Positions 3,293 to 60,665 of a DNA stretch of 64,000 nt are shown here, in pieces. Both the position numbers and the translations under genes were made by a program. Origin of the DNA: a virus. The notes under the pieces are model-generated. The model did no database searches. It was not told where the DNA came from and saw nothing but the letters and a program-made list of their open reading frames with translations. The stretch is taken from IMG/VR virus record IMGVR_UViG_3300035698_024626, positions 12,818 through 76,817 of that record; one strand, written 5' to 3'. The number at the start of each line of letters is the position of its first letter. Within the stretch, counting starts at the first letter, position 1.

Positions 3293-3400
3293 TTATGGGG
3301 AAGTGGTCTTTTCAGCAGGGGATGTTACTATGGTAGTGCTGGAACTGTGAGTTCTGCTACTATCCAGAAATACATAGAAAACCAGAAACACAATGACTAA
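3293..3400 (+). pseudogene. tnpA: C-terminal remnant of IS200-type Y1 transposase
   Basis: Translates LWGSGLFSRGCYYGSAGTVSSATIQKYIENQKHND*, the TnpA C-terminal helix with the catalytic Tyr (YIENQ). No start or HUH motif upstream. Confidence 0.8.
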
Positions 3401-4571
3401 CACCAAAGCATTCAAATACAGATTGTATCCAACCAAGAAACAAGAACAAGGTCTACAACAGACTTTGACCACTTGTAGGTTCTTGTATAACAATGCTTTG
3501 GCTCAACGAATTGACACCTACAAAAATACTCAAGAATCAGTCACTTATTGTGACCAAGCAAATACACTTGTAAAACAAAAGAACGACTACCAAAAACAAG
3601 TCCACTCACAAGTGCTACAAGAATCACTCAAACGTCTTGACACTTCCTTTGGGAACTTCTTTCGTAGAATCAAACAACAGAAGGCAGGAAAGAAAGTCAA
3701 AGCAGGTTTCCCACGTTTCAAGCCAGACCAGCGTTACAATTCGTTCTGTTACCCACAATCAGGTTTTAGATTAACCAACGATAGTAGGAGAATTACACTC
3801 AGTAAGATTGGTGATGTAAGACTCAAATATTCAAGACCAACAGAAGGTAAGATTAAAACTTGTAGAATTGTTCGTGATGTAGACCAATGGTTTGTGGTTC
3901 TAACTTGTGAGCAAGAAGTTTCTGAGCCACTCAAATCTACTAATCCTACAGTCGGTGTTGATGTGGGTATTAAGACCTTTGCTTTTCTTTCAGATGGAAC
4001 GCAGTTTGAGAACCCACGTCATACACGGAACTCAGAAGTTAAGTTAGCACAAACACAACGTAGATTGTCACAGAAAGTAAAAGGCAGTCAGAACAGAAAC
4101 AAACAACGACTTGAAGTTGGGAAGGTACATCGTAAAACACGTAGACAACGTGAGGATTTCTTACATAAGTTAAGTAGGGAGTTAGTAGACAATTACGGTT
4201 GTCTTGTGTTTGAGCAGTTAAACATTAAAGGAATGGTTCGTAATCACAAGTTAGCTAAGCATATAAGTGATTGTGCTTGGAGAAAACTAATTGAGTATAC
4301 TACATACAAAGCGGAGGAAGCTGGTGTGGAAGTTAGATTAGTTAATCCCAAGAATACAACTCAGATGTGTTCAAGTTGTGGTAAGATTGTTCCAAAGACT
4401 TTAGCAGACAGAACTCATGATTGTTCTCACTGTGGCTTAGTGATGGACAGGGATTTGAATGCTGCTAAGAATATATTAAGTAGGGTAGGGACTACCCAAA
4501 GTTACGCCTATGGAGATTTAACCGCTACTCAAGGACATTGTGTTCTTGAGCAAGTTGAGTCTGTGAAGTAG
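3393..4571 (+). CDS. tnpB: TnpB RNA-guided endonuclease (IS200/IS605 family)
   Basis: AFKYRLYPT N-terminus; RuvC residues GVDVG, FEQL and DRDLNAA intact; CSSCG/CSHCG Zn finger. Confidence 0.95.
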   Translation: MTNTKAFKYRLYPTKKQEQGLQQTLTTCRFLYNNALAQRIDTYKNTQESVTYCDQANTLVKQKNDYQKQVHSQVLQESLKRLDTSFGNFFRRIKQQKAGKKVKAGFPRFKPDQRYNSFCYPQSGFRLTNDSRRITLSKIGDVRLKYSRPTEGKIKTCRIVRDVDQWFVVLTCEQEVSEPLKSTNPTVGVDVGIKTFAFLSDGTQFENPRHTRNSEVKLAQTQRRLSQKVKGSQNRNKQRLEVGKVHRKTRRQREDFLHKLSRELVDNYGCLVFEQLNIKGMVRNHKLAKHISDCAWRKLIEYTTYKAEEAGVEVRLVNPKNTTQMCSSCGKIVPKTLADRTHDCSHCGLVMDRDLNAAKNILSRVGTTQSYAYGDLTATQGHCVLEQVESVK

Positions 4572-15068: not shown

Positions 15069-16298
15069 TTAGTTCAAACTACACGGATGTAATTCAAGAC
15101 CTAATACTTCTTTTTCCTGCTTCTTAGACTGGCACTGAACCGAAGTTCTGCAACCTCCAATCTCCACAGGCGTTTTGCAAAGCAAACGAGCTTCGCTAAA
15201 TTTCTGAGTGTCCCTCAGTATTTTTGTTCCTACATTTCTTATATTTACAGCAGCGTTCAAATCTCTATCCATCACTTCACCACAATCCAAGCACTTGAAC
15301 TCTCTATCTTTCAGTGTTAAGTTTTTGTTAATCCATCCACAACCACTACAAGTCTTAGATGATGGTTCAAATCTATCAATCTCAACAAGTGGTTTACCAC
15401 TCCATTCTGACTTGTATCGTAGTTGTCTCTTGAACTCAAACCAACCACAATCTGAAACTGCCTTTGATAGACAATGGTTAGACATAATGCCCTTAATGTT
15501 CAAATCTTCCATAGCAAATCCTTCATACTTGGCTATTATATGAGCAGTTGCTTTGTGTTGAAAATCTCGTCTGACATTTCTAACCTTTCGATGTAGTCTC
15601 TGAACTTTGTTACGCTGTTTACTTCTATTGTTACTCTCTTTCTGCTTTCTTGATAATCTTCTCTGTGCTTTCGAGAGTTGTTGTCCATACTTATTGAGTG
15701 TTTTAGGATTTTCTATGACACTCCCATCGCTCATAGTGGCATATGTCTTAATCCCTACATCAATGCCAACCAGTAAGTCTTGCTTACAAATTGGTTCTTT
15801 GACTTTGAGTTCCACATTTACGGCACAATGCCATTGCTCACCATCTTGAGAAATAGTAAGATGTTTTACTTTTCCTTTGATTGGTCTGTGCTTAACCCAC
15901 TGAATTTCTCCAATCTTAGGAATGAAAACAAAATGCTTTCCTATTCTAAACTTCTGAGGCACAGCGAAACTGTCGTTTTGCTTGCCTTTCTTCTTAAACA
16001 CAGGAAACCGCTTGGTCTTACTGAAACAGTCTTTGAGTGCTCTATCTAATTGACGGGCTACCTGCTGAAGTGATTGACTAAAACTCAGTTGAAGAAAATC
16101 GTGTTCCTTCTTGAATTGTGGAAGTGAAGTAACCATATCGTGAACAAATACGAACTTCTTTTCGTTTTCGTATTTGTCTTGATTTTGTTTAAGAAGAGCA
16201 TTCCACAAGAAACGAGTATTACCACCGTGCTGTCGTAAGGCAGCAGATTGTTCCTTAGTGGGATAAAGTCTAAACTTGTATGCTCTTCTAATCTTCAC
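15069..16298 (-). CDS. tnpB: TnpB RNA-guided endonuclease (IS200/IS605 family)
   Basis: RAYKFRLYPT; RuvC residues GIDVG, MEDL and DRDLNAA intact; CSGCG/CLDCG Zn finger. Confidence 0.95.
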   Translation of the reverse strand: MKIRRAYKFRLYPTKEQSAALRQHGGNTRFLWNALLKQNQDKYENEKKFVFVHDMVTSLPQFKKEHDFLQLSFSQSLQQVARQLDRALKDCFSKTKRFPVFKKKGKQNDSFAVPQKFRIGKHFVFIPKIGEIQWVKHRPIKGKVKHLTISQDGEQWHCAVNVELKVKEPICKQDLLVGIDVGIKTYATMSDGSVIENPKTLNKYGQQLSKAQRRLSRKQKESNNRSKQRNKVQRLHRKVRNVRRDFQHKATAHIIAKYEGFAMEDLNIKGIMSNHCLSKAVSDCGWFEFKRQLRYKSEWSGKPLVEIDRFEPSSKTCSGCGWINKNLTLKDREFKCLDCGEVMDRDLNAAVNIRNVGTKILRDTQKFSEARLLCKTPVEIGGCRTSVQCQSKKQEKEVLGLELHPCSLN

Positions 16299-19474: not shown

Positions 19475-20101
19475 CTAATTTTCATGGTTCAAGATTTTTT
19501 GTATGGTCGATCGACAAACACCATAATTGTGAGCCAATTCCCTTTGACTCAATTTTGAAGCTTTAATTGCGAGGATTTGATCTGATGTAAATTTTCGACT
19601 ATATGCAGGTATTTTTTTTTCACATGGATTGGGCACATGACCCCACACTGTTTTACCTCGTAGCGCCAAAGAAATGTTCGGTTGCGATACACCGTATTTC
19701 TTTGCTAACTGAGCCTGATTCATCTGCCCAGTACGATATAATTCACGCATTTCAACTACGTAAACCTCAGTCAATTTGCTTCTGGGGTGTTTTGAGCCGC
19801 GTATACTGCCAAGCCTGATCGTATCATCAGCATTCTCTCTGGATGTACCATATCTTAAATTCTCTGGGCGCGCATTGTTTTTGTCACCATCAAGATGCCG
19901 GCATTGTAAGCCCTTGGGCCTGGGTCCATAGAATGCTAAACAGACGAGCTTATGAACATAATGTTTACTATTCTGACGAACCGATACTCTGGGGTAACCT
20001 TCTTTATTGTAGTTCCATTTCAAGATATAGCCCCTTAGACCCCAAATGTTCCCATCGGAGTCTGCAAAATAGCCAGGATACTCAGGAATCGCTTTCTTCA
20101 T
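19475..20101 (-). CDS. HNH homing endonuclease with C-terminal HTH repeats
   Basis: YVHKLVCLAF...CRHLDGDKNNARPENLRYG; two helix-turn-helix-like repeats. Confidence 0.88.
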   Translation of the reverse strand: MKKAIPEYPGYFADSDGNIWGLRGYILKWNYNKEGYPRVSVRQNSKHYVHKLVCLAFYGPRPKGLQCRHLDGDKNNARPENLRYGTSRENADDTIRLGSIRGSKHPRSKLTEVYVVEMRELYRTGQMNQAQLAKKYGVSQPNISLALRGKTVWGHVPNPCEKKIPAYSRKFTSDQILAIKASKLSQRELAHNYGVCRSTIQKILNHEN

Positions 20102-20513
20102 ATATAATTATACGTTCAAGTCGATCGTTTGTTTTGATTTTTTTTGGTCAGTTGTTGAAAACTACAAGGCGATTGATATGGTGGTCGGGAAAGTGTCACC
20201 CCCCTTTTTTTCTTCCTCCTTAGTCGGCGAAGTGCGAGAAAGAGTGTAAACGAAAAGTTGTAGGTCGTTTGAAAATGGAGCCTACTATGTTTCGCACCCC
20301 TTACGTTATAGGACCATGTAATGTTATCGGAATCTATTTGTATTATACGCCGCCCCCTCCCACATCCAGGTTATCGGACTACCATCCACCAAACCTACTT
20401 ATAGGACTATCTTGCACAAGGTGAGTTATAGGACCATCGAGCATCCTGAGTTATCGGACTGTATCCTACCTTGCTGGACATTATCGGACGAAAAATAAAT
20501 CTTGGGATTCACC

Positions 20514-20542
20514 TTGACAATCGGCAACAGGGATCATATAAT
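20514..20542 (+). promoter_or_regulatory. Consensus sigma70 promoter P1
   Basis: TTGACA-17 bp-TATAAT, with an upstream A-tract. Confidence 0.9.
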
Positions 20543-20810
20543 ACATTGTAGAAACGAGGCTTTTATTATCGGAGGATAGAAAAATGACTATGATACTGGG
20601 AAGCGCTGTTATGGTTGTTATCGGGGTTGTTTGGTTTAGGCACATAGCCAAAGACTTATAGGACGACAATGATGAAGACTTTATTCGGACTAACAGGAAT
20701 GGGGTTGGTTATCGGAACCTTGACCGCGATGGGGTTATCAGACCTGTTCGGACGTATGTTATCGGCGATGAGCATCTAGAACCGAATAACAAAGAGAAAG
20801 GTAGGTTATT

Positions 20811-20936
20811 ATGAGACGCTTGCTATTGTTGGTATGCTTGGCTATAGGACCATGCTCTGTATGGGCCGATAACGAGGGAGTAGGGTTTATAAGCCCGATA
20901 GGAGGATATTATCAGGCGTGGAGAAGCAATGGGTAA
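20811..20936 (+). CDS. 41 aa peptide with signal-peptide-like N-terminus
   Basis: MRRLLLLVCLAIGPCSVWADNEG...; upstream AAGGTAGG; stop overlaps the next gene. Confidence 0.45.
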   Translation: MRRLLLLVCLAIGPCSVWADNEGVGFISPIGGYYQAWRSNG

Positions 20937-21141
20937 AGCACGACTTGAAATTCCTAATTATGGGACGGCAACTGGATTCTCGGACGTACTAGCTATGGGT
21001 TATGGGAGGTTACTTGCACTGACGTTATCGGACAATGAGGGATTCGTGGTTGTTACGTTATCGGACAGAAGCGAGAGAGTTATCGGACGTGACGCTCTGA
21101 CCGGCGAAATTACTATAGGACTTTTAATTAAGGAGCGATAA
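20929..21141 (+). CDS. Early hypothetical protein
   Basis: RBS GGAG; 70 aa; contains about six copies of the repeat motif. Confidence 0.6.
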   Translation: MGKARLEIPNYGTATGFSDVLAMGYGRLLALTLSDNEGFVVVTLSDRSERVIGRDALTGEITIGLLIKER

Positions 21142-21317
21142 TATGGGATCAATATCGGACATTGAAGCTAGACTGGAAAATTGGAAGATGCGATCATAAT
21201 GTTATCGGACGGAGTTGAAACACTGGATTCTCGAACCTCGTCCGATAGCGACAAAGAATGTGGACATTATATTCGGACGCCTAATATCGACGACTAGCCC
21301 GATAACCAAAAGGAAGT

Positions 21318-21342
21318 AGGTTCGATTTTATCGGACCTTTTC
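21318..21342 (+). terminator. Rho-independent terminator whose 3' arm is the repeat motif
   Basis: AGGTTCGAT-ttt-ATCGGACCT followed by TTTC. Confidence 0.75.
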
Positions 21343-21643
21343 CTTTGCCCCGGCGAAACATTATAGGACGTTCGGCGATTCGGGATGTTATCGGACCCTT
21401 CTCGGTCGGGCATTATCGGACTTGAAACCGTAAGGTTATAGGACTATGCTGGGGGAAAAATTATCGGACGAGGCTGCGTTTATCGGACCTGACGTATAAT
21501 AGCTTACCCTGTGTGTTGTAGGGCATGTTCTGATAATATCGCAACAGGTCCGTTTTACTTAATTATGCGGACCAGGACGTTACTTGCCGATAATAGCCGC
21601 GATTCTAGTCTAAAAACGCGGAAACTTTTTTCTCACATTTCAC

Positions 21644-21672
21644 TTGACGTTATACGATAACAAAGCTATAAT
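21644..21672 (+). promoter_or_regulatory. Sigma70 promoter P2
   Basis: TTGACG-17 bp-TATAAT, with an upstream T-tract. Confidence 0.85.
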
Positions 21673-21718
21673 AGAGTATAGAATCGAACGATGGATTATC
21701 AGACCTAGGAGAAACGCG

Positions 21719-22069
21719 ATGGGTAGGATTATGGGACGAACGGGAAGTCAAGTCTTATCGGACAGCGCCGCTCGTTATCGGCTGGCGCGTAGTCGGACGG
21801 TAAAATGCCAACATTATCGGCACGGTCCGAAAAACTGGGATTGTTGGGTAGTTGGGCCATTTCATAGTCGATATTATGGGACTACTGGTTTTGGGACCAC
21901 CCGAAGTAAGGCTAAAGTGGCACTTGAATACTTACTAGCCACAGAGTTCGGTTTTATCGGGCGACTAATGTTATCGGCAATCGATTCCGCCGATAACGTA
22001 GGAATCCGTTATGGGGCGTTAGATACTCCGATAACGATACAAGATTTATTGGGACGTGCCGGCGCGTAA
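21719..22069 (+). CDS. Early hypothetical protein (116 aa)
   Basis: Start reassigned to ATG 21719 after AGGAG; lies between P2 and a terminator. Confidence 0.65.
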   Translation: MGRIMGRTGSQVLSDSAARYRLARSRTVKCQHYRHGPKNWDCWVVGPFHSRYYGTTGFGTTRSKAKVALEYLLATEFGFIGRLMLSAIDSADNVGIRYGALDTPITIQDLLGRAGA

Positions 22070-22085
22070 TATAGGACTAAGAACC

Positions 22086-22110
22086 GGGTTCGATTTATCG
22101 GACCCTTTTC
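22086..22110 (+). terminator. Rho-independent terminator, paralogous to 21318-21342
   Basis: GGGTTCGAT-tt-ATCGGACCC-TTTTC; the outer A-T pair of the first copy is G-C here. Confidence 0.75.
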
Positions 22111-22759
22111 TTCGCGCCCATGACGATATTATCGGACCTGTGGGACGGCTGCATTATCGGACCTAAACCAGAGTAGATTTATCGGGCCTTTGAGCGGCAA
22201 GTTTTTATAGGACGTGACGTATAATCATTTGGCCTGTGTGCTCGTATCCACGTTTTTATAAGCCACGACCGAGAAAATCGATCACCCTCACAGCCTTGAA
22301 TCGGAACTATTATAGGACCGGCGGAGAAATATTATCGGACTACAGCCAGTTTTAGTTATCGGACGGAGCTGCCATTATCGGACGTGGCTAAGAATCGTTT
22401 ACTTCGTGTGATAATAACCCTCCATTTGACCAATTAAACGCCTCTTTTGTGTTATAGGGCGCATTTCTTATAGGATGTGGCCAATAAAATCGATTTTTTG
22501 CCGGTTATAGGACCAAAACGGGCGATATAGGACTAGCATAACCAGTCTTATCGGTCGGTCCGGATAAAGGGTCCGAGAAAATAGCCCATTCTAGCCTAAA
22601 AAACGTGTATAGTTATGGGAATACGCGATTGTGGCGCGTGAACAGCGTTATTATAGGAGCCTAAAAAGGGACGTGTTTCCTATAGGACCAGGACGTAGTT
22701 TGCCGATAATATCCCGCCTGGCGCTGTCAAAAACGGCGATTTTTCTTTTGTATAACAAT

Positions 22760-22788
22760 TTGACCCTCCCGTATAACTATGGTATGAT
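22760..22788 (+). promoter_or_regulatory. Sigma70 promoter P3 (extended -10)
   Basis: TTGACC-17 bp-TATGAT with TGn extension. Confidence 0.75.
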
Positions 22789-23007
22789 CTTATGATAAGA
22801 GAAACTGAGGTTCGATAATAAAAGGCGTTTTCGCGCCCGATTTATCGGACACCCGCCCCACGGGTGTTATGGGACGCAACCGTTCTGGTTATCGGTCCCA
22901 CCTTAGTCCGAAAAAAAACTTAGTCTGATAACGCGATCTACTCGTCCTATAATCTGGGGCGGCGTAGTCACGGGTTATAGGACGGGGTTCAGTTATGGGA
23001 GTCTACC

Positions 23008-23331
23008 ATGAGTGAAACCGATACCATGACCAGTCAGGCAACCGTTGTAGAGTTTGGTGCTGACGATCTGATTCGAGTCGCTAAGGCTTACGCTGAAGCC
23101 AAGCGTATTGTCGATGCCAGTAGTCGGTACGACAATCTCGAAGATGCTGTCGCTGCGCTTACCGAAGCGTGGGAACAGTTGGAGAGTCAGGCCAATAACG
23201 GCGGAAGGTACACTCCGGCTAAGGAGTTGGGGTTTGGGTCTGATAACGCGGCGACCATCGCTGATGCGTTATTGGGACGTAAGCCGACCGTCGGCGCTAC
23301 TCGCAAGGCGTTTGCCGCATTGGGCAAGTAG
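23008..23331 (+). CDS. Early hypothetical protein (107 aa, Ala-rich, helical)
   Basis: RBS GGGAG; downstream of P3. Confidence 0.7.
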   Translation: MSETDTMTSQATVVEFGADDLIRVAKAYAEAKRIVDASSRYDNLEDAVAALTEAWEQLESQANNGGRYTPAKELGFGSDNAATIADALLGRKPTVGATRKAFAALGK

Positions 23332-23334
23332 TCC

Positions 23335-24690
23335 GCGTGTCTCTCGTACCGCGCTTTGGGTATAGTCACCGCTCCGAGCGCGGACCGACAGACATGTTAT
23401 AGGACCGTCCGGTAACGACGGACGTTATATGGCGCGCTAGACCGATAAGTCGCGCTGGTTCGATCTGTCAGTCGGGCACGAAGTCCGATAAGTGCGGGGG
23501 GGCGATTCGTTATCGCTAGAACCGTCAGTCGCGCAAAGCGTGCGGATTTAGTCAACGGATTATCGGTCTTAGGGTCTATAGTCTGTATCCGTCCGTGAGC
23601 ACGTCTAAGCCGCTCATTCCGGGAGGTCGATATAGGCAGAGAGTCCGCGCCTAAGTCGGTGGAAACCGTCTTCGCGAATCATCTGGGGTAGCGCCTAGTG
23701 TGACGGATGTTAGTAGCGTAGTCCGAGCAAGTAACCGATGGTAAAGCGTGCTTTTTTTGACTCCGAAAATCGTCTAAGTAGGCTATTGGTCTGCCCTTCG
23801 CGGGTGGGGGTCGTAGTCAACATTCGTTTTTCCCTATATCGCAAATCGCCGTAGGGATAGGTCGTCAGGCGCGCCGCACGTCAATTTCGTCACAACGATT
23901 TCACTGAACAATCTACAATCGCTCGACGCCAAATAGCTATGCGGCAAGGGCCGTTGGTTTAGTGGATAGTGTCGGAACTTCTGTTGTTCGTCTGATGCGA
24001 CTGGTGTTTACCTGTAGCAAGGTACGTTCTGGTCGGGACGCTGAACGACTACGGCGCAACGGCGAGCGTAAAATCAGGTCAAAAACCGACTGTCCGGTCT
24101 GGTGGCACGCTCCGAAACACTCCGTTGTAAATCAAGACTTCATAGAAACCATCCACGGCGTGCGACTGGCAGTATCAGTCAGGCTGTGGGTGTAAGTCAT
24201 ATAAACTGTGTGCGCACCGAAAGGTGTGGGAGCAATTGGGTGGCCCGGCTAATAACTGGGGCGCTCAGTTGTCGATTAGGATCGGTGGGGATTCTAGTCA
24301 ACTTTTCTGTAGGATGTACGACGATGAAAGCGGTCATACGGCCGCGAATAATCCCGCATCCGAAAGCTATGTTGTCGATACTGGTGAGACGGGTAGCCCC
24401 GCCGTAGCGCCGGGTTCAAGTCCCGGAAAGTCCAAGCCAGTTGCCAAGTATGGGGAAGTTCCCCAAGCGTTATCGACAGCATAGCCAGGCGCGCCTAGTG
24501 CTGATAAAGTCACAAAATTGGGTTTGGCCGACTGGGGAGTCGCAGACCTCTTAGGATGTGCTGGGCGCGTTTGGGTATGCTGTTAAGTATTAGGAGTGGT
24601 ACCGAAGTTTCCCTAGTTTTTGAACGTAAGTTCATAATCGAGCGCGGGGTTAGCGTCACAATTATCCTTCATATCTGTAGTTACAAACTT
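23335..24690 (+). ncRNA. Candidate large structured non-coding RNA (family unknown)
   Basis: No credible ORF; GC-rich; helix 24475-24498/24561-24584 with G-U pairs on the + strand; GNRA hairpins at 23657-23668 and 24214-24227; T-arm at 24410-24426. Confidence 0.6.
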
Positions 24691-25571
24691 TAGTTTTCAC
24701 TCTTTCTTGTACCCCCTAGTTATCACACTACAAAAACTACACCCCTACAAAAACACACTTTAGGGGGTCACCAGAACACTTTCGGGGCGTTTTAATTAGT
24801 CTAGTCTTAGCGTGCATCTGTCCCAGGCGCGCCAAGAGAGAACTGTTCTGTAGCCTTTTTGGTGGTTGGTGCTCTTTTGCTTGTAGGTGGGGTATGGGGT
24901 AGATTGGATAAAGGGGGTTTACAGAGTCGTGAGAGCGGCTTCTGGCACTGCAAACAGACAATCGTCACCAAGTCCGTTTACCCCGTATATGTGGGATCGT
25001 CAACCACTCCGTGGGAATCTAAACCACTTTGTGGGAGTGAAGTACGATAGGGAAAAACACATAGTATCGTCGGATTCCGGTAGTATTATCTGTCGGGCAA
25101 CAATACGTATTTCAGGGTACAAAAAATGCGACAAGAAGAGTACGAATATCACCTTGCTCTAAGATGGCACCAACTCAAATGGGCGGGTTGGGATATAGCC
25201 AAGTGGATTAGAGCGGGATGGTGTCCTCAACACGGAATAAGGTTTTCTCGCAAATGTCCCGTTTGCACAGAAATGAAAGACCGAACGGAAACCGAACAAA
25301 GGATGAATGTAAAATGAAACTTCGTAACATCTCTTTCTATAAGAATCCCCTCGATCTTGATATCCGACCGCACTTACCGGCAACCAGTCCAATCCTCTAT
25401 TACATTATTAATAGGAACATTATAGTAGGACATTTTCACAAAAAACACAAAAAACACGAATGGTATCTCTCGCTAGAACCCAATGTAAGTATCTCCCCCA
25501 GTCTCGTAGTTAGCCTTTACGAACGACTCATATCTTCCTTGTCTTGCTATAAGTTACCATAATCCCGCCTG

Positions 25572-26182: not shown

Positions 26183-28116
26183 ATGTCAAATCAAAAGGAA
26201 GTCAAAATGAAAATCAACAACATAGGGACAGTCTCTACAGATAGTAACCCCGGCGTCGAAACACGGTTCCCTGTCGGAACAAGAGTGATAGTGCCAAATT
26301 GGCCAACAGGCGGAAAAGTAATGGGGCATCACGAAGGTTCTGTGATAGTAGAAGTGTTGCCGATATCATACTGTCCATCACAACTCCAACTCGATTATGG
26401 ACAGTAGTCTACACTCTTTTTTGTAGGGAACGAATTCCAATGATTGATAGATAAAAAATCGTAGTTTTGTGGGATTGGTGGGGACAGAAATTTGATGGGT
26501 CCACCGGAGATGCAAAATCAGCACGGAAGAAAGTCGGCAGCATGAGCGAAGCTTACGATTTAGTGCACAAAATAAAACTCCGCTATGCAGACCGGCCCAC
26601 TTTGGCGTCGGGCAATCTTCTGGCCGTGAAGATAGTGGTCACTCATATCATGTACCCCGCCGAGTAAACTTGTACTCTAAAAGAAGTAAGCCATCGTTTT
26701 AGTCTTTACTCTTTCTTGTAGGGAAAACCATGGAAATCAAATGTACCAACAGCGAACTGGCCACAAAACGTTTTGACGAACTATTAATCGGCGATGCATT
26801 TCGGTTGCCGTTCGGACACAATCCTATGATTAAAACCGAAAAATGCCAACAAGTTGTCCCAGATGGCGCACCCATATTAAGGAATGTCTTCAACCTCGGA
26901 AACGGCGGATTTACACGGCTTAGTGACTTGGAACGTAAGTTCATAAAGGAGGACCAACGTGCATTATTGTCAAGTGTGTACTGATAAATCGTTTGCACGA
27001 CAAGGAAGGTGGGGATAAACATAAAAGAAATCCAGCTACCGTGCTATGGAATCTGTGTGACCATCGTTGATGGGAGTGGGAATATCACCCATAGCGGACT
27101 AGAAGAAACATGTCCATATTGCGAAGATACGGATTGCTGTTACAGTTGTGACCTATCGGAGGCAGTATGGGATTGGGACGTTCCCGATCGCCTAAAGTTC
27201 AACGGAGCAATTACTGGCATCATGTCTATGATCCTTGCCCACGCCTGTGCTGGAGTGGATATTGAATCACCGGAATACATTGAAGGTATCGAAACCGCCA
27301 TCCAGACTAGCAACGACAATCTCTAACAGGTTCATTAGAAGTCGTCTAGACAAGGAAAGTGGGAGTAAAAACATATGGGACAGGCTGTGGTTGACGGTAA
27401 ATTAGAGCCTGGAACATATTACATCCGAATTATTTGGTAATCGACGGAACACGTATTTCAGGGTACAAAAATCGCCTGCAACAACAAGTGGAGGTAAGGA
27501 CGATGACCGCTGAAGACTTGGGCACAGCCACTAGGCGACGGGCTATTCTGGATTTGCTGTGGAACTCTCTATCAGCCGACCCAGAGAACAAAGACCGCGT
27601 GCGTACCGGATGGGGCACCAAAAGACAAGAGGGACTCGTGGCGTGCATCGAAAACATCATGGGTGACAAATTTGTTTTCGTGCTCGAAGATACCATGTTC
27701 ATTTTTGTCAGCATCCACCACACCCTAGCAGGAGCAATCGCTGCTTTTATCAGACACAATCGTGTAAAAGATGAGCACAATATTATTGTGGACAAAGTGG
27801 ATGATGGTTGGTTCATATATTCACGCAAAGAGCCTGGAATCAAGTGGTCAATATATAAAGAAGAGATACAAGAATGAAATTTGAAGTTTCAGATATTTTT
27901 GCTTAACAAACTAACAGAAAGGACAGAAACATGACTCTTGCTCAAGTTTTCATTATCGGAATGGGTGCTGGTGGACTTTTCATCCTAGTCCGCGACATAT
28001 CGCTTTGCCTAAGTACTAACGCGAAAGGGCAAGTTTTTGGGATTGCGAGGTATATATCCGGGGCTGTAATAGGAGGAATAACGGGCGTAGCCGTTAACCT
28101 TCTTTGGCATCTATAG
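26183..28116 (+). other. Cluster of small early hypothetical genes (26207-26407, 26730-26984, 27009-27326, 27503-27877, 27931-28116)
   Basis: Co-oriented short ORFs, most with an RBS; the last is a two-TM membrane protein. Confidence 0.55.
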
Positions 28117-28159
28117 TCTTAGCAATGAGAATTGACGCTCGATTCAAATAGGAGACTGC

Positions 28160-29766
28160 CCATGATTGACGACGGAGGACCGGCGTTTCCGGTGACAGGA
28201 ACTTGTGGTTACGATCCAGAATATGAACGTAAAATGTCGAGCCGAGCAAAAGAATTGCCTGAACTAACAGGCTTGGAACGGTTAGGGCTCTTAGGGGTTG
28301 TCCACGGGTAAGTACCCGTAGAAACGGCGATGGCCAATCTCCGGTGCTCTCGGCAGGATGTAGAGGCGTATGTTTGGCGCGAGAAACTACGTGCAGCGGC
28401 AGACCGAGAGAGTTATGGCGGGATCACGGCATGATCCTCTGCGCCATGGCCATCGTCATCGAACTGGTTGAATATCGGTACGCACAACGCGGTATCCCCG
28501 CAGCGCTTGTACGATACCCAACTTGGCGAGATGCCCTCGCCGAATGGGAGCGGTTGACGGAGAAAAGCGATGGAAATTGACGGGCAAACGATCACGCAGA
28601 TACGTGATGAACTGCGTAAAGTAAGGCGCGAACGCGACACGCTGGCGGGCCAGCTAGAAGCAGTAGAAGCGGAACGTGACGCTTTAGGGTTGGACCTGGA
28701 AAGGGCGGAAACTGAACTCAAAGGTGTCCAGGCAGATGCCACAGCTCGGCGAAGGTCCCTTGCCGAATGAGAGCGACTGACGGAGCAAAAGTAATGAGCG
28801 CTAAACTTATTGCCACGTTTAAGCACATGAGCATTACACGGTATGGTCGAATCGGCGTAGAGGAAAGCTATACGATCCGTTCGCAGATTCTCCTCGGCCA
28901 TATACGGTTTTACAGCCCGTGGGGACAATGGTGTTTCTTTCCCTTTGCAGATACGGTCTGGAGCGAGGACTGTCTTGCGGACGTGCGGAAGTTCATGTTG
29001 GGATTGAAAACATGATGGGAGCGAAAAAACCTAAGAGCGTAGCCGCTCTGCTGGACAACTTGAAGGCGGAGTATGCGGTCGTCGAACGGGGTTGGAAGAC
29101 GCGGGTGGCGCTGGTCACAGTGGAGAACCAATGGCGACAGTTAGAGATGGAGTGCTTCGAGGCCAGAATACGCTGCGAAACAGCGGAGCGCGAATATGAG
29201 AAAGCCAAAGTCGCTGTCGTGGGTGCGCGGGGCCGTCTGCGCAAACAGACTGCAAGGGTCGCGAAAGCTGGGAGGGCGGTTACTGATCTTCCCGCTCCCG
29301 AAACCGAAGCGATTGCCACCCAGATCGCCGAATGGGAGCGGTTGATGAATACAGTGGAGAACGGGACTGGTTAAAACAGGAGACAGAATGATGACAGTAA
29401 AAGAATGCATGATCAGATATTCCGCAGGCGCGCGATTGGTATTAGAAGCGGCCATACGGAAAGTTGCCCTCAAATGGATCAATGCGAACTGTCCGGATGC
29501 TTGGTTCCGGGCAGCGTTCGCGAGGGAGACCCCCGATGCCTAAGCAGACGGCGGAGAACGTGGTAAAGGCTCTAGAGGCGGCCTTTGGTTGGTTGCTTCC
29601 TTCGCTAACCTGGAACGACCAAGGCCGAACGGCCGGGAACGTTCTATGGACGAAGATAGGCAACGTCAAGTCTGTAACAATTTTGAGATCAACGCCAACG
29701 GTGGCGGGCTTACGGATAAAGTTGTCCGACGACTCCGAATTCGTGATCACCATTGCCAAGGGATAA
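28160..29766 (+). other. GC-richer block of overlapping small genes (incl. 28570-28770 coiled coil, 28767-29015, 29012-29374, 29536-29766)
   Basis: ATGA overlaps and visibly higher GC than the flanks. Confidence 0.5.
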
Positions 29767-30078
29767 CACTATGTCAAATGTATTTAAGGTAAAGTTTGAA
29801 TCAGCTTTCCCGGCCACCGGCAGATTGCAAACAGAAATAATCGCATGGCTAAGCGACAGTATGGTGGTGAAAGTTGATGGCGAAGATTCACAAGTAGCCG
29901 TCGATATGGTGCGGGCTTATGTTTTGTCCAAGGTAAATAAAGCATGTTCCGCTGATGCTCCGATAAATACAGTCAAAGGGTTTCATCTCAGAGGTGTGGA
30001 GTTTATAACTCAGATAGACTTAGAGTAATAAGAGTTCTTGTGCTAAAATCGTTCACACTCTTTCTTGTAGGGGAAAAC

Positions 30079-52616: not shown

Positions 52617-53116
52617 TACATGAACACGAAAGAGGTGGCATCCCAATTGCGCAAAATTCTGAACAGGGAAGACACGGAAACAGATGGCCTGATTAGGCGT
52701 GGCAAGTCATCCAAACACACCCATGAACTCGAAGTCCTGATGGAGCATGTTGCCTTGTTGGTAGCAGACCTGAGATTCGATGCTGAAGCATCTAAGAGAG
52801 AATTATTTGTAGCTCGTTCCCTTCTTGAAGAAATGCCCTAACAATCTGTTTAGTCTTTTTTTTTAATTGCCTTGGGAAAAGTGGACACTAAAAGGAAAGG
52901 AAATGAAAATGGAAAAGAAGTCAGAAGAACAAAAGCCACCAAGAAGTAGTCAAGTAAGAACAGTAGCCGATCTTAAAAGGATAATCGCTGAATGTCCTAA
53001 TGATCTACCAGTTGTTGGATTTTCTGGAGATGATGCAAAAGGCAATTGTTCCGTATATGTTAACGACGCCAGATACCCAACACTTCATATCAGACTTTGA
53101 GTTTCGAGGAAAGAAC

Positions 53117-54682
53117 ATGGATACATTTCAAAAGAACCTTATCGATTATCTTTGCTCAGGCCATTGTTTACTGCACGTCAGCACCTTTGAAAAAGACCGA
53201 GCAATAAATAGAATTAGCGAGGCCGCTAAGCAAATCAATCGCACGGTTCATATATGGTCAGTTGCGACAGGTTGGAAGAACGACCAGGGAGTCGTGGTGT
53301 CGGATGCTAAGCCGGGTTGCCCGGTAGAAGAAAGCCTCATGGCTATCACGGAATTCCCTCAGAATACTGTCTGTATCTTACAGGATTTCGATTGTTATTT
53401 GCGGCACGAAACCTACCCCGGTTTCGACATTATTATCTCATGGCTAAATGAATTACGACAAATGTTGTCAACTAATCAACAATCTATCATATTCGTAGGG
53501 CCAGCGTTTGAACCACCAATCGGATTGAAACATGATATTACTATGATAGATTTCGCCCTACCTGACACAAATCAAATTGAAGCTCAAATTATGTTCTCGT
53601 GCGAAGATGTGATGACAAAAGATGGAAAAAAGTTTGAGCCCAATCTAGACTTGCTCCCTCAAATAGTTGCTGCTTGTCGAGGCATGACGCAGCAGCAAAC
53701 CATTGACCGAGCTACGCTCACTTTAAGAAAGCATGGAGATTTTAACGAAGCTGCGATCAAAACAATTACTCGTGAAAAGGCTGCGGTCGTAAACGCATCC
53801 GGTCTTTTAACTTACATTGAACCGCCTGAAGGTGGGTTGTCGATTGTGGGTGGATATAGCGCTTTGAAACAGCACGTCCAACTCGATAAACCATGTTTTA
53901 CTACCGAAGCGAGAGAGTTTGGTATTGAATTTCCGAGGGGAATCATGCTCGTAGGAATCCCTGGTTGTGGAAAGACATTGCTGTCTCTTGCAATCGCATC
54001 GGAACTTGGTTTGCCACTCATAGCGATGGATGTTGGCAACCTAATGTCTAAGTACGTGGGCGAATCAGAATTGCACATGAGGGAAGCGATCGGTATGTTG
54101 GAGAGTATCGCGCCTTGTGTTTTGGTCTTGGACGAAATTGAGAAAGGCTTCGGGGGTGTGGGAGATATGGACGGGGGAGCATCACGTCGCGTATTTGGTA
54201 CATTTTTAAAATGGATGAACGACCGTACTTCTCCAGTTTATATAGTAGCAACAGCCAATCAGGTCCAGTCACTACCCCCGGAATTCTCCAGGAAAGGAAG
54301 ATTTGATGAAATATACGGACTTGACCTACCGGCAACTGAAGAGCGCGAAGAAATTTTTCGTATACATATAGCCAAAAGAGATAGGAAACCAGATGACTTT
54401 GACTTAGAAAAATTGGCCAACACTACTCCTGGGTATACAGGGGCAGATATTGAACAGATTGTTAAACTTGGCCTGAAGGTAGCATTCTCTGCCAAATTAC
54501 GACAACTCCAAACCGAGCATCTATTACAATGTGTAGAAGATATCATTCCGTTGTCTCAGACTGAAGAACAACGAATCAAGAACGTAAGAGATTGGTGCTC
54601 GCGACATGCTAAGCCTGCCAATCCACCAATAGAAAAGATATCCAAAGGTGGCGGCAGTAACAGAAAAGTTACCCTGAACTAG
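53117..54682 (+). CDS. AAA+ ATPase, Ycf46-like
   Basis: GIPGCGKT Walker A, LVLDEIEK Walker B, ATAN, LPPEFSRKGRFDE; degenerate N-terminal AAA domain. Confidence 0.9.
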   Translation: MDTFQKNLIDYLCSGHCLLHVSTFEKDRAINRISEAAKQINRTVHIWSVATGWKNDQGVVVSDAKPGCPVEESLMAITEFPQNTVCILQDFDCYLRHETYPGFDIIISWLNELRQMLSTNQQSIIFVGPAFEPPIGLKHDITMIDFALPDTNQIEAQIMFSCEDVMTKDGKKFEPNLDLLPQIVAACRGMTQQQTIDRATLTLRKHGDFNEAAIKTITREKAAVVNASGLLTYIEPPEGGLSIVGGYSALKQHVQLDKPCFTTEAREFGIEFPRGIMLVGIPGCGKTLLSLAIASELGLPLIAMDVGNLMSKYVGESELHMREAIGMLESIAPCVLVLDEIEKGFGGVGDMDGGASRRVFGTFLKWMNDRTSPVYIVATANQVQSLPPEFSRKGRFDEIYGLDLPATEEREEIFRIHIAKRDRKPDDFDLEKLANTTPGYTGADIEQIVKLGLKVAFSAKLRQLQTEHLLQCVEDIIPLSQTEEQRIKNVRDWCSRHAKPANPPIEKISKGGGSNRKVTLN

Positions 54683-56560: not shown

Positions 56561-57187
56561 ATGCCAAGATTCATTGATTTGACTGGACAAAGATTTGGGA
56601 GACTTGTTGTTCTGAAATTAATTGGAAAGAATAAATGGGGCAGTTACCAATGGCTATGTCGATGTGATTGTGGCAAAGAAAAAATCGTGCGAATCGATAG
56701 TCTCAAAAGTGGTAGAACAAAGAGTTGTGGATGTTTGAATAGAGAAAGATTAACCAAGCATGGTCATTATGGAGATAGAACCTACAAATCGTGGAGCCAA
56801 ATGATTCAACGATGTACCAACCCTAATAATAAATATTTTAAAGATTACGGTGGTCGAGGTATTACGGTTTGCGAAAGATGGTTAAATTCTTTCCCGAATT
56901 TTCTTGAGGATATGGGAGAGAGCCCTAAAGGACACCAAATTGATCGAATGAATAACGATAAGGGGTATCACAAATCTAATTGTCTATGGGTTACGCCAAA
57001 ACAAAATAGCCGTAACAGACGAAGCAATCATCTGGAAACCCATAATGGAAAGACACAATGTATAACAGCTTGGAGCGAAGAGGTGGGAATTCCAGAATAT
57101 GTTATTAGACAACGACTTAAACACGGTTGGTCAATAGAAAGAGCATTAACAACACCAGTCAAAAAATATAAAAGGAGAAAATCTTGA
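56561..57187 (+). CDS. HNH-type homing endonuclease
   Basis: DLTGQRFGRL..CRCDCG..KSCGC..YGGRGITVCERW..IDR.NND; paralogue of 49123. Confidence 0.85.
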   Translation: MPRFIDLTGQRFGRLVVLKLIGKNKWGSYQWLCRCDCGKEKIVRIDSLKSGRTKSCGCLNRERLTKHGHYGDRTYKSWSQMIQRCTNPNNKYFKDYGGRGITVCERWLNSFPNFLEDMGESPKGHQIDRMNNDKGYHKSNCLWVTPKQNSRNRRSNHLETHNGKTQCITAWSEEVGIPEYVIRQRLKHGWSIERALTTPVKKYKRRKS

Positions 57188-59645: not shown

Positions 59646-60665
59646 ATGATAGATAAACAATATGATCTATGTTTTAACGACATTTTGCTCATTCCGCAGT
59701 ATTCAGAACTCGATTCTCGCACAACTCCCAGCACAGCAACTCATCTTGGATGGCTCAAATTAGAGACGCCAATCATCTCAGCACCTATGGATTCGATTAC
59801 AGGAAAACACATGCTGACCACCATGGCCAAATTGGGTGGCCTTGGAATTCTAAGTCGTCATATCAATTTGCCCGACAAAGAAGAGTTGGCTACACAAATA
59901 AAAGAAGTCCAGTGGGCTCGCAACCAGGGAGCAAACAACATTGGTTGTGCCATTGGGGTGAAGGAAAATGTTGGCCATAAGGCTCAGTCGTTGCTCAATG
60001 CTGGGTGCAACGTCATCTGTTTGGATGTAGCTCATGGCGATCATCTAAAAATGTACGAAGCAATAGAAACATTAGCGCATCTAAAAGAGAAGTATCGTTT
60101 CATTATCATGGCTGGTAACGTATGCACATACGACGCCGCCTTTAGATTTGCCGATTGTGGAGTTGACGCGATCAAGGTGGGCATTGGTCCTGGCGCGGCT
60201 TGCACGACCAGACTTATTACCGGATTTGGACGTGGACAACTATCTGCTATCCAAGACTGTTGTGTCGCAGTCAAAAATGAGTTTCCCGAAGTTTCCATTA
60301 TAGCAGACGGGGGATTACGAAATTCTGGCAATATGATCAAATCCTTCTGGGGGGGTGCCGATGCGTGCATGATCGGGTATATGCTCGCTGGAACCAGCGA
60401 TACACCCAAGATAGAAGGCAAAAGAATCTACCGAGGCATGAGCAGCCGAAGCGTTTCTGGTCGTTCAGACATTGCTCCAGAAGGAATTGAGATCAATGTA
60501 GCTGATAAGGGGGAAACAAAAAAAGTTATAGAGGAATATGTTAAAGGAATAAAGGCGGGATTAGCCATGGGTGGAGCAAAAAACCTTAACGAATTAAGAG
60601 AAAATGTGACACATGTGATTGTCAGTCCCCTCTCTATGGACGAAACAATGCCAAAAACTCAGTAA
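59646..60665 (+). CDS. IMP dehydrogenase / GMP reductase family protein (no CBS domains)
   Basis: PIISAPMD, LDVAHG, AGNV, KVGIGPGAACTTR, IIADGG, YRGMSS. Confidence 0.9.
   Translation: MIDKQYDLCFNDILLIPQYSELDSRTTPSTATHLGWLKLETPIISAPMDSITGKHMLTTMAKLGGLGILSRHINLPDKEELATQIKEVQWARNQGANNIGCAIGVKENVGHKAQSLLNAGCNVICLDVAHGDHLKMYEAIETLAHLKEKYRFIIMAGNVCTYDAAFRFADCGVDAIKVGIGPGAACTTRLITGFGRGQLSAIQDCCVAVKNEFPEVSIIADGGLRNSGNMIKSFWGGADACMIGYMLAGTSDTPKIEGKRIYRGMSSRSVSGRSDIAPEGIEINVADKGETKKVIEEYVKGIKAGLAMGGAKNLNELRENVTHVIVSPLSMDETMPKTQ

Follow-up and report, generated by a model that had tools for sequence, protein, structure and literature searches.

Besides ribosomal RNAs and self-splicing introns, structured RNAs of more than 500 nt are, to our knowledge, few in bacteria and phages (OLE, GOLLD, ROOL, and HEARO). 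Such large RNAs have opened new lines of research on membrane ribonucleoproteins, RNA cages, and RNA-guided nucleases. GOLLD RNA (Rfam RF01998) has a length of about 800 nt and is borne by phages and prophages, often beside tRNA genes, while ROOL RNA (Rfam RF03087; about 580 nt) is frequent in prophages near tRNAs; the function of GOLLD and the biochemical function of ROOL are unknown. We know of no report of a strict linkage to a protein gene for either of them. OLE RNA, with about 610 nt, is encoded chromosomally in extremophilic Bacillota and forms a ribonucleoprotein with Oap proteins that are encoded nearby. The early region of phage T7 combines three strong host-type promoters, a first small gene, and hairpins for processing by RNase III. 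ROOL and GOLLD form multimers, and ROOL self-assembles (10.1101/2024.12.08.627333).

Here, we describe a conserved stretch of roughly 1 kb from an uncultured salt-lake phage, in all likelihood a structured RNA that is new, exceptionally large, and without a known function. It is encoded in a 64,000-nt stretch of the IMG/VR virus record IMGVR_UViG_3300035698_024626 (positions 12,818 to 76,817; hereafter the window). The sequence-only reading had proposed a very large structured non-coding RNA of about 1.35 kb at positions 23335-24690, downstream of an early promoter and assignable to no known family. A large structured RNA is supported by ten further loci and strong covariation, and its size has to be corrected: the family-wide core extends from 23335 to ~24310 (+) and comprises about 0.98 kb, and the part from 24310 to ~24600 is common only to the window and its closest relative, L025. 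The lack of a known family holds as well, since Rfam 15 gave no match for the whole window at gathering score, and a search of 22800-25300 at E-values up to 10 returned only noise (best hit 17 bits against a threshold of 42.5 bits). In eight related loci only tRNAs matched Rfam, and no covariance-model match was found to GOLLD, ROOL, OLE, HEARO, raiA, or any other Rfam 15 family. A group I or group II intron was rejected, as there is no match to an Rfam intron model, no interrupted upstream gene, and no internal ORF; a tRNA or tmRNA was rejected, as neither ARAGORN nor Rfam (RF00005) finds such a gene in the window. In the literature no description of the RNA was found, and fragments of it are possibly among the motifs of 29-151 nt reported in a survey of short IMG/VR motifs (PMC10690425).

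The comparison with the described systems shows likenesses to several of them and identity with none. As GOLLD, the element is a very large multi-domain phage RNA, and tRNA genes lie 3' of it in several relatives; however, it is longer (core about 980 nt), occurs in other phages, and always follows a gene encoding a 107-aa protein. The location typical for GOLLD and ROOL, in a phage and near tRNA genes, is met in the relatives, and the window itself has only a T-arm mimic. ROOL is similarly large and ornate but differs in size and domain layout and lacks a covariance-model match to the element. The likeness to OLE consists in a large RNA with an adjacent, dedicated small protein gene and in the extreme habitats. 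Since OLE acts with small proteins encoded nearby, it is the model for the proposed pair of RNA and 107-aa protein, although OLE is not phage-borne, has no Rfam match here, and the 107-aa protein is unrelated to named families. With the T7 early region the locus shares sigma-70 promoters and a small early gene at whose boundary a long irregular duplex is located (P1, see below); T7 is not known to have a kilobase structured RNA, and the resemblance would be limited to how the RNA is made and released. A short motif, AGUC, is repeated on one strand of the structured RNA, as known from the protein-sponge RNAs CsrB/RsmZ, but here it often lies inside helices, no partner protein is known, and the RNA has three times the length of CsrB. 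Among the tetramers of all homologues, AGUC shows the strongest over-representation (144 observed versus 49 expected), and many of its copies are part of helices and not of hairpin loops; no such excess is seen for its complement, and GGAG and GAGG are depleted across all homologues.

The region from 23335 to ~24310 is non-coding. As had been read from the sequence, it is poor in ORFs and rich in GC: all ORFs in 23335-24690 are unconserved, have at most 101 aa and mostly GTG or TTG starts, and the two 1-kb bins of the region have GC contents of 0.54 and 0.51, whereas most of the window's remaining bins have about 0.37-0.46. Over 22900-25300, each of the six frames contains 32-41 stops of all three kinds, and reassignment of any single stop codon opens no frame. 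A conserved reading frame was found neither in 23335-24310 (+) nor in the tail to ~24600, so that the coding check also speaks for the non-coding reading. Searches of the region by tblastn gave matches in all six frames, essentially only to L025 (73% identical), and this translated similarity is lost beyond the closest relative; the neighbouring 107-aa protein shows homologues at 44-79% identity. Moreover, the indels that distinguish the window from L025 have lengths that are not multiples of three.

The arrangement of the 107-aa gene followed by an ORF-poor, GC-raised region of 0.9-1.5 kb is found at ten further phage loci besides the window (L002/L025, L003/L029, G003, L022, L026, L027, L028, L031, L032, and L033), and the resulting set comprises 11 loci, ten distinct sequences, and about three clades. 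The RNA lies directly 3' of the gene in 11 of 11 loci and has a single copy in each of five records, of which three are complete; these three complete carrier genomes have sizes of 165-180 kb. All carriers are phage contigs, derived from salt-lake and other environmental habitats, and from the sequences at hand the RNA appears specific to a clade of uncultured 165-180-kb phages. Genes for tRNAs follow on the same strand in L027, L031, L032, L022, and L029, with a tRNA-Asp gene in L027 (4295-4365) within a few nt of the terminal hairpin of the RNA. The RNA alignment does not include the DNA around the other ~70 homologues of the 107-aa protein, which limits its depth. The GenBank phage collection contains no match to the region by blastn or to the 107-aa protein by tblastn, a profile of the protein found no match in GTDB genomes, and an exact 19-mer pattern scan of IMG/VR gave none. 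A pattern scan of metagenomes yielded eight loci, two of which repeat known contigs and one of which (L022) is a true new homologue; L018, L019, L021, L023, and L024 are chance matches without the other conserved blocks. A two-part hairpin pattern matched L012 by chance within high-GC coding DNA and also detected, in the unrelated phage L013, a genuine hairpin that stands alone. The only sequencing runs that contain the sequence are salt-lake DNA metagenomes, with no RNA run among them, and for this reason everything on the transcript, including its ends and its abundance, is inference.

Base pairs of the element are kept by compensatory change on the + strand. The consensus of subgroup B comprises 246 pairs, with 91.0% of the cells paired compared with 82.4% after shuffling, and two-sided changes occur at 87 pairs, a number reached in none of 500 pair shuffles (36.3 +/- 4.4) and far from the 16-22 of slid controls. 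Against column shuffles, 90 compensatory pairs stand versus 27-41 and a consensus energy of -220 versus -46 to -62; the SCI is 0.60. The window aligned with L025 alone has 41 compensatory pairs (12-24 in column-shuffled and 1-3 in slid alignments) and an energy of -275 (-109 to -140 in column shuffles). Non-circular tests are provided by the projection of the structure derived from subgroup B onto subgroup A, to which the window belongs, and by covariance models built from B only. Upon projection by MAFFT, 62.1% of the subgroup-A cells are paired versus 34-41% in slid controls (57.1% versus 36-42% for the window alone), and 156 cells are changed on both sides yet paired, versus 69-99 in controls. 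The B-only model R1 matched the window at 24031-24203 with an E-value of about 8e-8 and also finds every subgroup-A locus; within its alignment 91.3% of the cells pair versus 71.7% in shuffles, and 20 of 30 pairs covary. The E-values of the covariance models derive from a shortened calibration. RNAalifold favours covarying structures, a bias which is mitigated, though not removed, by the column-shuffle null and the cross-group tests, and on the joint MAFFT alignment of subgroup A it returned only 66 pairs because the two halves of this subgroup align poorly.

The strand on which the structure forms can be told from the same data. G-U cells number 206 versus 16 A-C cells, and the consensus energy of the reverse complement amounts to -127 versus -220 for the + strand. 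Folded as a single sequence, the + core reaches a z-score of -2.63, which none of 20 shuffles equals, and the - strand one of +0.06. The excess of G-U over A-C and the folding of one strand only point to a conserved structure of an RNA rather than of duplex DNA or cruciforms. The single-sequence thermodynamics of the + core are only moderate, with local 200-nt windows at z-scores of -2.5 to -4.3 in 23200-23500 and 24100-24600 and of about 0 between. On both covariation and folding energy the data thus side with a large structured RNA: compensatory pairs lie well above every control, the consensus is far better than column shuffles, and only the + strand beats its shuffles. That the element is a genuine structured non-coding RNA leaves, in our judgement, little room for doubt.

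At its 5' end the RNA begins with the hairpin P1 (23337-23395, +). Above an outer stem (23337-23342/23390-23395) follow the pairs UCG/CGA (23344-46/23386-88), then a 2x2 internal loop (UA/AC), which is conserved, and finally the inner stem CCGCGCUU/GAGCGCGG (23349-56/23376-83). The inner stem is paired in 52 of 54 subgroup-A cells, and in nine of these both sides differ from B. It is this hairpin that stands alone between two genes in the unrelated 47.8-kb phage L013 (4669-4719); P1 is possibly a processing or protein-binding site. It is followed by a three-way-junction domain (23383-23473, +), whose closing helix 23383-23392/23464-23473 had been recognised from the sequence together with two enclosed hairpins and is confirmed with 9 of 10 pairs and two compensatory changes relative to L025. 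Enclosed are the helices 23402-06/23457-61, 23407-11/23419-23, and 23431-37/23449-56, and the domain as a whole shows 2+1+1+1 compensatory changes versus L025. An equivalent junction is present in subgroup B (A4 columns 82-178), and the B-only model R2 reaches the window at 23336-23450 with an E-value of about 7e-4. As the closing helix overlaps the 3' strand of P1, the two represent alternative pairings.

The middle region (23474-23847, +) is conserved and covaries only within subgroup A; a model derived from the corresponding part of subgroup B (R3, columns 226-383) remained without a match in subgroup A, also when the filters were switched off. Since this region is not common to subgroup B, the core of the family is smaller than the element of the window. 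The region holds a hairpin (23528-32/23538-41), a long pairing 23628-36/23833-41 with four compensatory changes versus L025, and a pairing 23655-60/23734-39 with three. The latter occupies the site of one of two GNRA hairpins noted earlier (23657 and 24214); both exist in the sequence, neither is kept in L025, and at 23655-23660 it is the different, covarying pairing with 23734-23739 that is found instead. A second hairpin with a GGUGGG loop and a U tract (23786-23830, +) is an insertion relative to L025, which lacks about 40 nt here; its segment 23803-23824 is 82% identical to 24284-24305 of the terminal GGUGGG hairpin, and it would truncate the transcript if it were a working terminator. The middle region further contains the sequence-conserved GUCCGAUAAG (23482-23491), the complement of the TTATCGGAC repeat located upstream. 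Pairing of a sense copy of this motif (23560-23570) with the antisense segments 23439-48 or 23481-91 was considered and set aside, as it receives no compensatory support from L025; it is not excluded.

The central multi-helix domain (23848-24055, +) is closed by GCCGUAG/CUACGGC (23848-54/24049-55), a helix which spans 200 nt, occurs in five different stem versions, and keeps its pairing throughout the alignment rows (30 of 30 subgroup-A cells and all of B). Its inner arms are 23860-62/24040-42, 23885-93/23969-77, 23900-03/23963-66, 23916-24/23948-56, and 23998-24004/24029-35. Preceded by an invariant GCUGAACG block, a conserved hairpin domain follows at 24056-24128 (+), composed of 24056-62/24122-28, 24064-69/24107-12, 24074-78/24098-102, and 24086-88/24095-97 and corresponding to helices 1-3 of model R1. 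The best-supported hairpin of the RNA (24136-24198, +) consists of a lower stem GACUU/AAGUC (24136-40/24194-98) and an upper stem CAUCCACG/UGUGGGUG (24150-57/24185-92), with a conserved unpaired GAAAC between the two; all its cells are paired in ten distinct sequences, and 10 of 13 pairs are changed on both sides. The terminal hairpin (24274-24309, +) has the form GAUUAGGAUC-GGUGGG-GAUUCUAGUC followed by AACUUUUCUG, and a terminator-like hairpin was placed by scan at 24274-24299. Its stems differ in every genome and covary across ten genomes, the GGUGGG loop is invariant, and a tract of U4-6 follows in 9 of 10 genomes (not in L029). With a G+C-containing hairpin, a directly adjoining U tract, and a stem conserved in form, 24274-24309 meets the criteria for an intrinsic terminator, and judged by sequence it likely represents one and with it the 3' limit of the core common to the family; in subgroup B, conservation does not extend past this hairpin. 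An invariant loop such as GGUGGG does not belong to the features of a terminator and is unexplained.

Beyond the terminal hairpin, a lineage-specific structured 3' extension (24310-24600, +) is common only to the window and L025. It includes a hairpin (24331-35/24340-44) and a segment, 24350-24363, that can pair with GGUGGGGAUU of the terminal hairpin. The 24-bp helix 24475-24498/24561-24584 seen in the sequence-only reading is present, with 19 Watson-Crick pairs, four G-U pairs, and one G-G mismatch, and is kept in the nearest relative with one compensatory and four one-sided changes. Two further hairpins of that reading, the T-arm mimic CCGGG-UUCAAGU-CCCGG (24410) and UGGGGA/UCCCCA (24451), exist as described, and both reside in an insertion of roughly 90 nt (24381-24470, +) that is absent in L025. 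A tRNA identity of the mimic was rejected, as ARAGORN finds no tRNA in the window; the only Rfam match to the insertion is weak and mascRNA-like (17 bits, E 5.2), and 24388-24432 is merely T-arm-like.

Consensus-like sigma-70 promoters are located at 20514, 21644, and 22760. The last of them, P3 (22760-22788, +), consists of TTGACC, a 17-nt spacer, and TG-TATGAT, which gives 10 of 12 consensus matches with TG before the -10 element. A promoter of this type precedes the gene start by 238-254 nt in the window as well as in L025, L029, L026, and L033, and this positional conservation in four relatives backs the earlier placement of the RNA downstream of an early promoter. P3 is likely the start of a transcript carrying the 107-aa gene and the RNA, an assignment that rests on the consensus match only, without transcript data. 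The scan found neither a further promoter-like site on the + strand between 22953 and 24324 nor a terminator-like site between gene and RNA. The conserved early gene preceding the RNA (23008-23331, +) ends at its own stop codon, whose place does not differ among the relatives, and encodes an all-helical product of unknown function and fold. A search at E<=1e-3 gives 80 homologues of the 107-aa protein, which belongs to no PHROG family and whose only Pfam match stays below the threshold; its AlphaFold2 model shows five helices (pLDDT 88.8), and by our own count its net charge is negative. Comparison with the PDB gave no fold match (Foldseek E>3; VIA-align Z<=3.5) and no recognised RNA-binding fold by either program, and the wide VIA-align search and the ESM Atlas returned no usable match. 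Its role as partner of the RNA is a guess from gene order alone.

In the mechanism that we propose, the host RNA polymerase would transcribe the RNA very early from the sigma-70-type P3, and leader, 107-aa gene, and RNA would share one transcript. P1, a long duplex that includes the conserved internal loop, would mark the boundary between mRNA and RNA and may be a processing site, e.g., for RNase III, and transcription would end at the terminal hairpin with its invariant GGUGGG loop and U tract. We consider this architecture fairly probable. The folded RNA may then act in trans during host take-over as a protein-binding scaffold or decoy, with the 107-aa protein, always encoded just upstream, as a candidate partner. 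A role as trans-acting scaffold, decoy, or ribonucleoprotein is guessed from context and remains tentative. Taken together, a previously undescribed multi-domain non-coding RNA of ~1 kb with the inferred architecture and an action in trans has, weighted to the first two parts, a probability of roughly 0.6.

Several other explanations have to be weighed against this reading. The RNA could form a self-assembling RNA-only particle, i.e., a homo-oligomeric cage or lattice as ROOL or GOLLD, instead of a protein-bound scaffold. It shares with them size class and ecology (large, ornate, phage-borne, of unknown function). In relatives it is followed 3' by tRNA genes or tRNA-like pieces, the window has the T-arm mimic, and the invariant single-stranded blocks (the GGUGGG loop, GAAAC, and GCUGAACG) could make inter-molecular contacts. 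Without a sequence or structure match to ROOL or GOLLD, without oligomerisation data, and with a strict protein-gene linkage that is not known for either, we regard this as unlikely. The missing promoter of its own also fits a cis-acting 3' untranslated region that protects, processes, or terminates the 107-aa mRNA or sets read-through, with no function in trans. Such a role is in line with the lack of a terminator between gene and RNA, with the P1 duplex, which resembles the RNase III sites known to separate the T7 early messages, and with the terminator-like terminal hairpin, to whose loop 24350-24363 can pair as a possible anti-terminator. However, about 250 conserved pairs over 1 kb, a covarying helix of 200-nt range, and invariant loops exceed what stability or termination need, and the RNA is three times as long as the gene it would serve, which makes a purely cis-acting element improbable, too.

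The surroundings of the locus raise the question of an origin or packaging element acting at the DNA level or through an R-loop primer RNA (as ColE1 RNA II), with replication from the strand-switch point. The region adjoins the point of transcription divergence and the minimum of the cumulative GC skew (about 19-20 kb) as well as an array of some 50 TTATCGGAC/TTATAGGAC sites, which is polar and conserved throughout the relatives, and it contains sense and antisense copies of the array motif. GC skew does not locate an origin here because it also follows the direction of transcription, and the excess of G-U over A-C cells, the folding of one strand only, and compensatory changes in long-range helices, which are unexpected for protein-binding DNA sites, leave this possibility with little weight. 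Still less credit can be given to the idea that small elements independent of each other (e.g., hairpins, terminators, small RNAs, or repeat-derived palindromes) are merely lined up here: most helices are local, the GGUGGG hairpin module is duplicated inside the element of the window, and the middle third is not conserved between the subgroups, but every genome has the domains in collinear order over about 1 kb, the 200-nt closing helix 23848-54/24049-55 covaries in every lineage, and no promoter-like + site lies between 22953 and 24324. A protein-coding region that uses an unusual code, contains frameshifts, or consists of many micro-ORFs, for which some ORFs of 77-101 aa could be cited, can practically be dismissed in view of the stops in every frame, the indels versus L025, and the six-frame similarity that is gone beyond the closest relative.

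A more far-reaching reading goes beyond our preferred one of a kilobase non-coding RNA acting in trans and would make the element the founding member of a new class of kilobase RNAs, larger than GOLLD, made in the first minutes of infection, and with a mechanism undescribed for phages; we consider this rather doubtful. One possibility would then be a ribonucleoprotein with the dedicated 107-aa protein; alternatively, the RNA might communicate with the ~50-copy polar TTATCGGAC array via its conserved complementary GUCCGAUAAG segments, and either route could control early transcripts, genome entry, or host defence.

With ~1 kb and about 250 conserved pairs, the RNA would be the largest of the set formed by OLE, GOLLD, ROOL, and HEARO. 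The neighbouring dedicated protein, the early promoter, the defined 5' duplex and 3' terminator, and a repeat array whose complement is embedded in the RNA offer handles for experiments. The finding indicates that metagenomic phage contigs still hide large RNA genes, which are invisible to ORF-based annotation and to short-motif surveys. If the RNA is a decoy or take-over factor, it would add an RNA-based strategy to the conflict between phages and their hosts.

At window positions 23335 to about 24310 on the + strand, directly 3′ of a gene for a 107-aa protein, the analysis establishes a new, single-copy, kilobase-sized structured RNA gene of a clade of large environmental phages, albeit from few sequences and without expression data. 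The source contig (76.8 kb, IMG/VR), bases 12818–76817 of which form the window, is 46% complete according to CheckV, and a sequencing-run search found near-identical DNA in salt-lake DNA metagenomes only. Genes point leftward before ~20 kb and rightward beyond, and the cumulative GC skew turns at this strand switch. The final leftward gene ahead of the switch and of a repeat array encodes an HNH endonuclease with HTH domain (19475–20101, − strand; phrog_59, E 3e-40), and two TnpB-type genes carrying OrfB_IS605, Cas12f-like TNB and HTH domains are located at 3393–4571 (+) and 15069–16298 (−). Promoter scanning of 20.3–23.6 kb revealed three consensus-like sigma-70 promoters (20514, 21644, 22760), the last being separated by a ~210-nt leader from the 107-aa ORF (23008–23331), four bases past whose stop codon the RNA element starts. 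The genes for a NAD-dependent DNA ligase (57184–59046), an IMPDH/GMP-reductase-family enzyme (59646–60665) and an AAA+ ATPase (53000–54682) are typical large-phage auxiliary genes and uninformative on the host.

The sequence-only reading had described 23335–24690 as ORF-poor and GC-rich, which holds: ORFs are short only and chiefly GTG- or TTG-initiated, and GC is 0.51–0.54 vs ~0.37–0.46 for the majority of the window's remaining bins. Each frame contains 32–41 stops of all three kinds, so that recoding of a single stop is of no help. A second GC-rich block (28000–30000; 0.52–0.53) carries numerous overlapping ORFs on both strands, at least one of which (28570–28770) resembles a genuine coiled-coil protein. 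The helices proposed earlier were recovered, i.e., the 24-bp helix 24475–98/24561–84 (19 Watson-Crick pairs, four G-U, one G-G mismatch), the helix 23383–92/23464–73 enclosing two hairpins, and the TGGGGA/TCCCCA hairpin. Both proposed GNRA hairpins exist in the window and neither is retained in L025, the nearest relative; the tRNA-like T-arm is likewise present, lying in an insertion (24381–24470) that is missing even from L025. Folding better than shuffles, suggested as a check, was met modestly: the 976-nt core reaches −368.5 vs −344 ± 9 kcal/mol (z −2.63; opposite strand +0.06), with local significance at both ends only.

Homologous loci were sought with the 107-aa protein, which has no Pfam or PHROG family and 80 relatives in a collection of 5.8 billion proteins, with a protein profile and with DNA patterns. 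Ten further loci were recovered from IMG/VR and JGI metagenomes, forming a subgroup A nearer the window (L002/L025, L022, L003/L029, G003) and a more distant subgroup B (L026, L027, L028, L031, L032, L033); neither the gene nor the RNA region was found in GenBank phages. Directly 3′ of the gene, each locus has 0.9–1.5 kb of raised GC without conserved ORF, in which the 5′ hairpin, GUCCGAUAAG, GCUGAACG, GAAAC(U/C)GUCC and GGUGGG are conserved collinearly; in G003 this region spans the arbitrary start point of a circularly assembled genome. A one-domain covariance model detected one copy per genome in 5/5 genomes, three of them complete (165–180 kb).

The structure is carried by covariation, which the sequence-only reading had proposed to look for among homologues and which exceeds shuffled and slid controls in two alignments. 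In subgroup B (MAFFT, five sequences, mean column identity 68%), the RNAalifold consensus comprises 246 pairs, and 91.0% of cells are standard pairs vs 82.4% with partners shuffled. Pairs changed on both sides number 87, vs 36.3 ± 4.4 after shuffling (0/500 shuffles) and 16–22 with the 3′ partner slid by 1–3 columns. Since RNAalifold itself favours covariation, columns were also shuffled and refolded, giving a consensus energy of −46 to −62 instead of −220 and 27–41 covarying pairs instead of 90. For the window and L025 (73% of nucleotides identical in aligned columns) the energy is −275 vs −109 to −140 in column shuffles, and compensatory pairs number 41 vs 12–24 (shuffled) and 1–3 (slid); the SCI is ~0.6 in each alignment. 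Transferring the subgroup B structure to subgroup A through a structure-blind MAFFT alignment, 62.1% of cells pair vs 34–41% slid (window alone 57.1% vs 36–42%), and pairing persists in 156 cells where both bases depart from the B consensus, vs 69–99 slid. R1, a covariance model of 163 positions from subgroup B only, matches window 24031–24203 (38 bits, E ~8e-8 by rough calibration) and recovers all other subgroup A loci (E 1e-11 to 3e-7). In the resulting alignment 20/30 pairs covary, and hairpin 24136–24198 is paired in every sequence with 10/13 pairs altered on both sides. A long-range helix (23848–54/24049–55) is paired in all rows in five versions: GCCGUAG/CUACGGC, GUCGUAG/CUACGAC, GUCACG/CGUG(A/G)(U/C), GUCAUA/UAUGAC and GUCG(U/C)G/C(A/G)CGAC. 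The subgroup B structure has 206 G-U vs 16 A-C cells, and its reverse complement reaches just −127.

A second subgroup B model, R2 (5′ hairpin and three-way junction), reaches the window weakly (E ~7e-4), chiefly through the 5′ hairpin P1, and R3, covering the next 150 positions, matched nothing in subgroup A, even when run without filters. The family-wide parts are therefore P1, the following junction and the 3′ half, which begins at 23848 and ends with the terminal hairpin. Conservation and covariation of 23474–23847 are restricted to the window's own lineage, and 24310 to ~24600, including the 24-bp helix, is common to the window and L025 only. P1 (23337–23395) is a ~19-bp irregular duplex with a conserved 2×2 internal loop. 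Its 3′ half has an alternative partner at 23464–73, and as both pairings show compensatory changes against L025, alternative folds are hinted at. At the other end, a terminal hairpin (24274–24309) occurs in every genome with a different stem each time and always the loop GGUGGG, followed by U4–6 except in L029; subgroup B conservation ends there. Most relatives carry same-strand tRNA genes 3′ of the RNA, a tRNA-Asp gene within few nucleotides of the hairpin in L027 (4295–4365) and more distant ones in L031 (4705–4785), L032 (5617–5712, 5967–6039), L022 (9048–9111) and L029 (5347–5411). The window's sole counterpart is a T-arm-like remnant at 24388–24432.

Several readings of this RNA have to be weighed. 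That the stretch encodes protein is practically ruled out, in agreement with the earlier non-coding call: indels against L025 (1, 2, 5, 25, 40, etc.) are not multiples of three, and translated searches with all stop-to-stop segments gave matches to L025 in each of the six frames and virtually none to anything more distant, whereas the flanking 107-aa protein is detectable at 44–79% identity. Across all homologues, GGAG and GAGG rank with the most strongly depleted tetramers. The idea of several small, independent elements in a row is scarcely credible. The layout of P1 (4 bp, UA/AC internal loop, 7 bp) recurs in a stand-alone hairpin (L013 4669–4719) that separates two genes of a phage (IMGVR_UViG_3300031834_000009, 47.8 kb) which is unrelated and lacks both the 107-aa gene and the RNA, so the hairpin looks like a portable module for processing or binding; by analogy with T7, RNase III would be the obvious processing candidate, for which no cleavage data exist. 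The GGUGGG hairpin likewise seems to duplicate or move, as judged from its copies. The window holds two that are 82% identical and end UAGUCAAC...UUUU (23786–23830, 24274–24309), the first being a ~40-nt insertion absent from the nearest relative, and G003 and L029 have two each. This internal terminator-like copy is an unexplained weakness of the RNA reading. A purely cis-acting 3′UTR is unlikely. As to the ends of the RNA, which are inferred, a terminator scan found no terminator-like site between gene and RNA, and a sigma-70-like promoter precedes the gene by 238–254 nt in the window and four relatives. An origin or primer element is very improbable. Upstream, a polar array of ~50 copies of TTATCGGAC/TTATAGGAC (+ strand, 20280–23570; TTATNGG 54 vs 8 on the − strand over 3 kb) traverses small ORFs, terminators and leaders at the strand switch. 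The same 9-mer prevails in the equivalent 3 kb that precede the 107-aa gene, for nearly all relatives inspected (L002, L003, L004, L022, L026, L027, L031, L032, L033; weakest in L002, the closest), the repeat being identical across all, so whatever factor reads it is conserved. The copies may serve as iterons, in Chi-like protection, or as sites that bind RNA or protein.

The RNA resembles the large ornate RNAs in being big, highly structured, phage-borne and near tRNAs, and differs in matching none of the models that define their families when searched against them, which excludes it from the known large-RNA families. ROOL/GOLLD-like self-assembly is improbable. Rfam 15 has no matching family, as the inability to assign one had foreshadowed, and a literature search found no description, and we file it as a new class akin to those RNAs. 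It has a fair, though less than even, chance of also working by a new mechanism. We favour, at a probability of roughly 0.35, a trans-acting early scaffold, decoy or RNP. Given that a strong host-type promoter precedes it where the rightward early region starts, the RNA would be made very early and abundantly. That it is strictly linked to a single small protein gene points to a partnership like that of OLE with its Oap proteins; because the 107-aa protein is all-helical and, by our count, net negative, and structure searches matched no known fold, the RNP idea is inferred from gene order only. The AGUC motif, three-fold over-represented on the + strand only in all homologues, and the conserved GUCCGAUAAG complements of the upstream repeat, for which functional data are lacking, may bear on what this RNA does in the phage.
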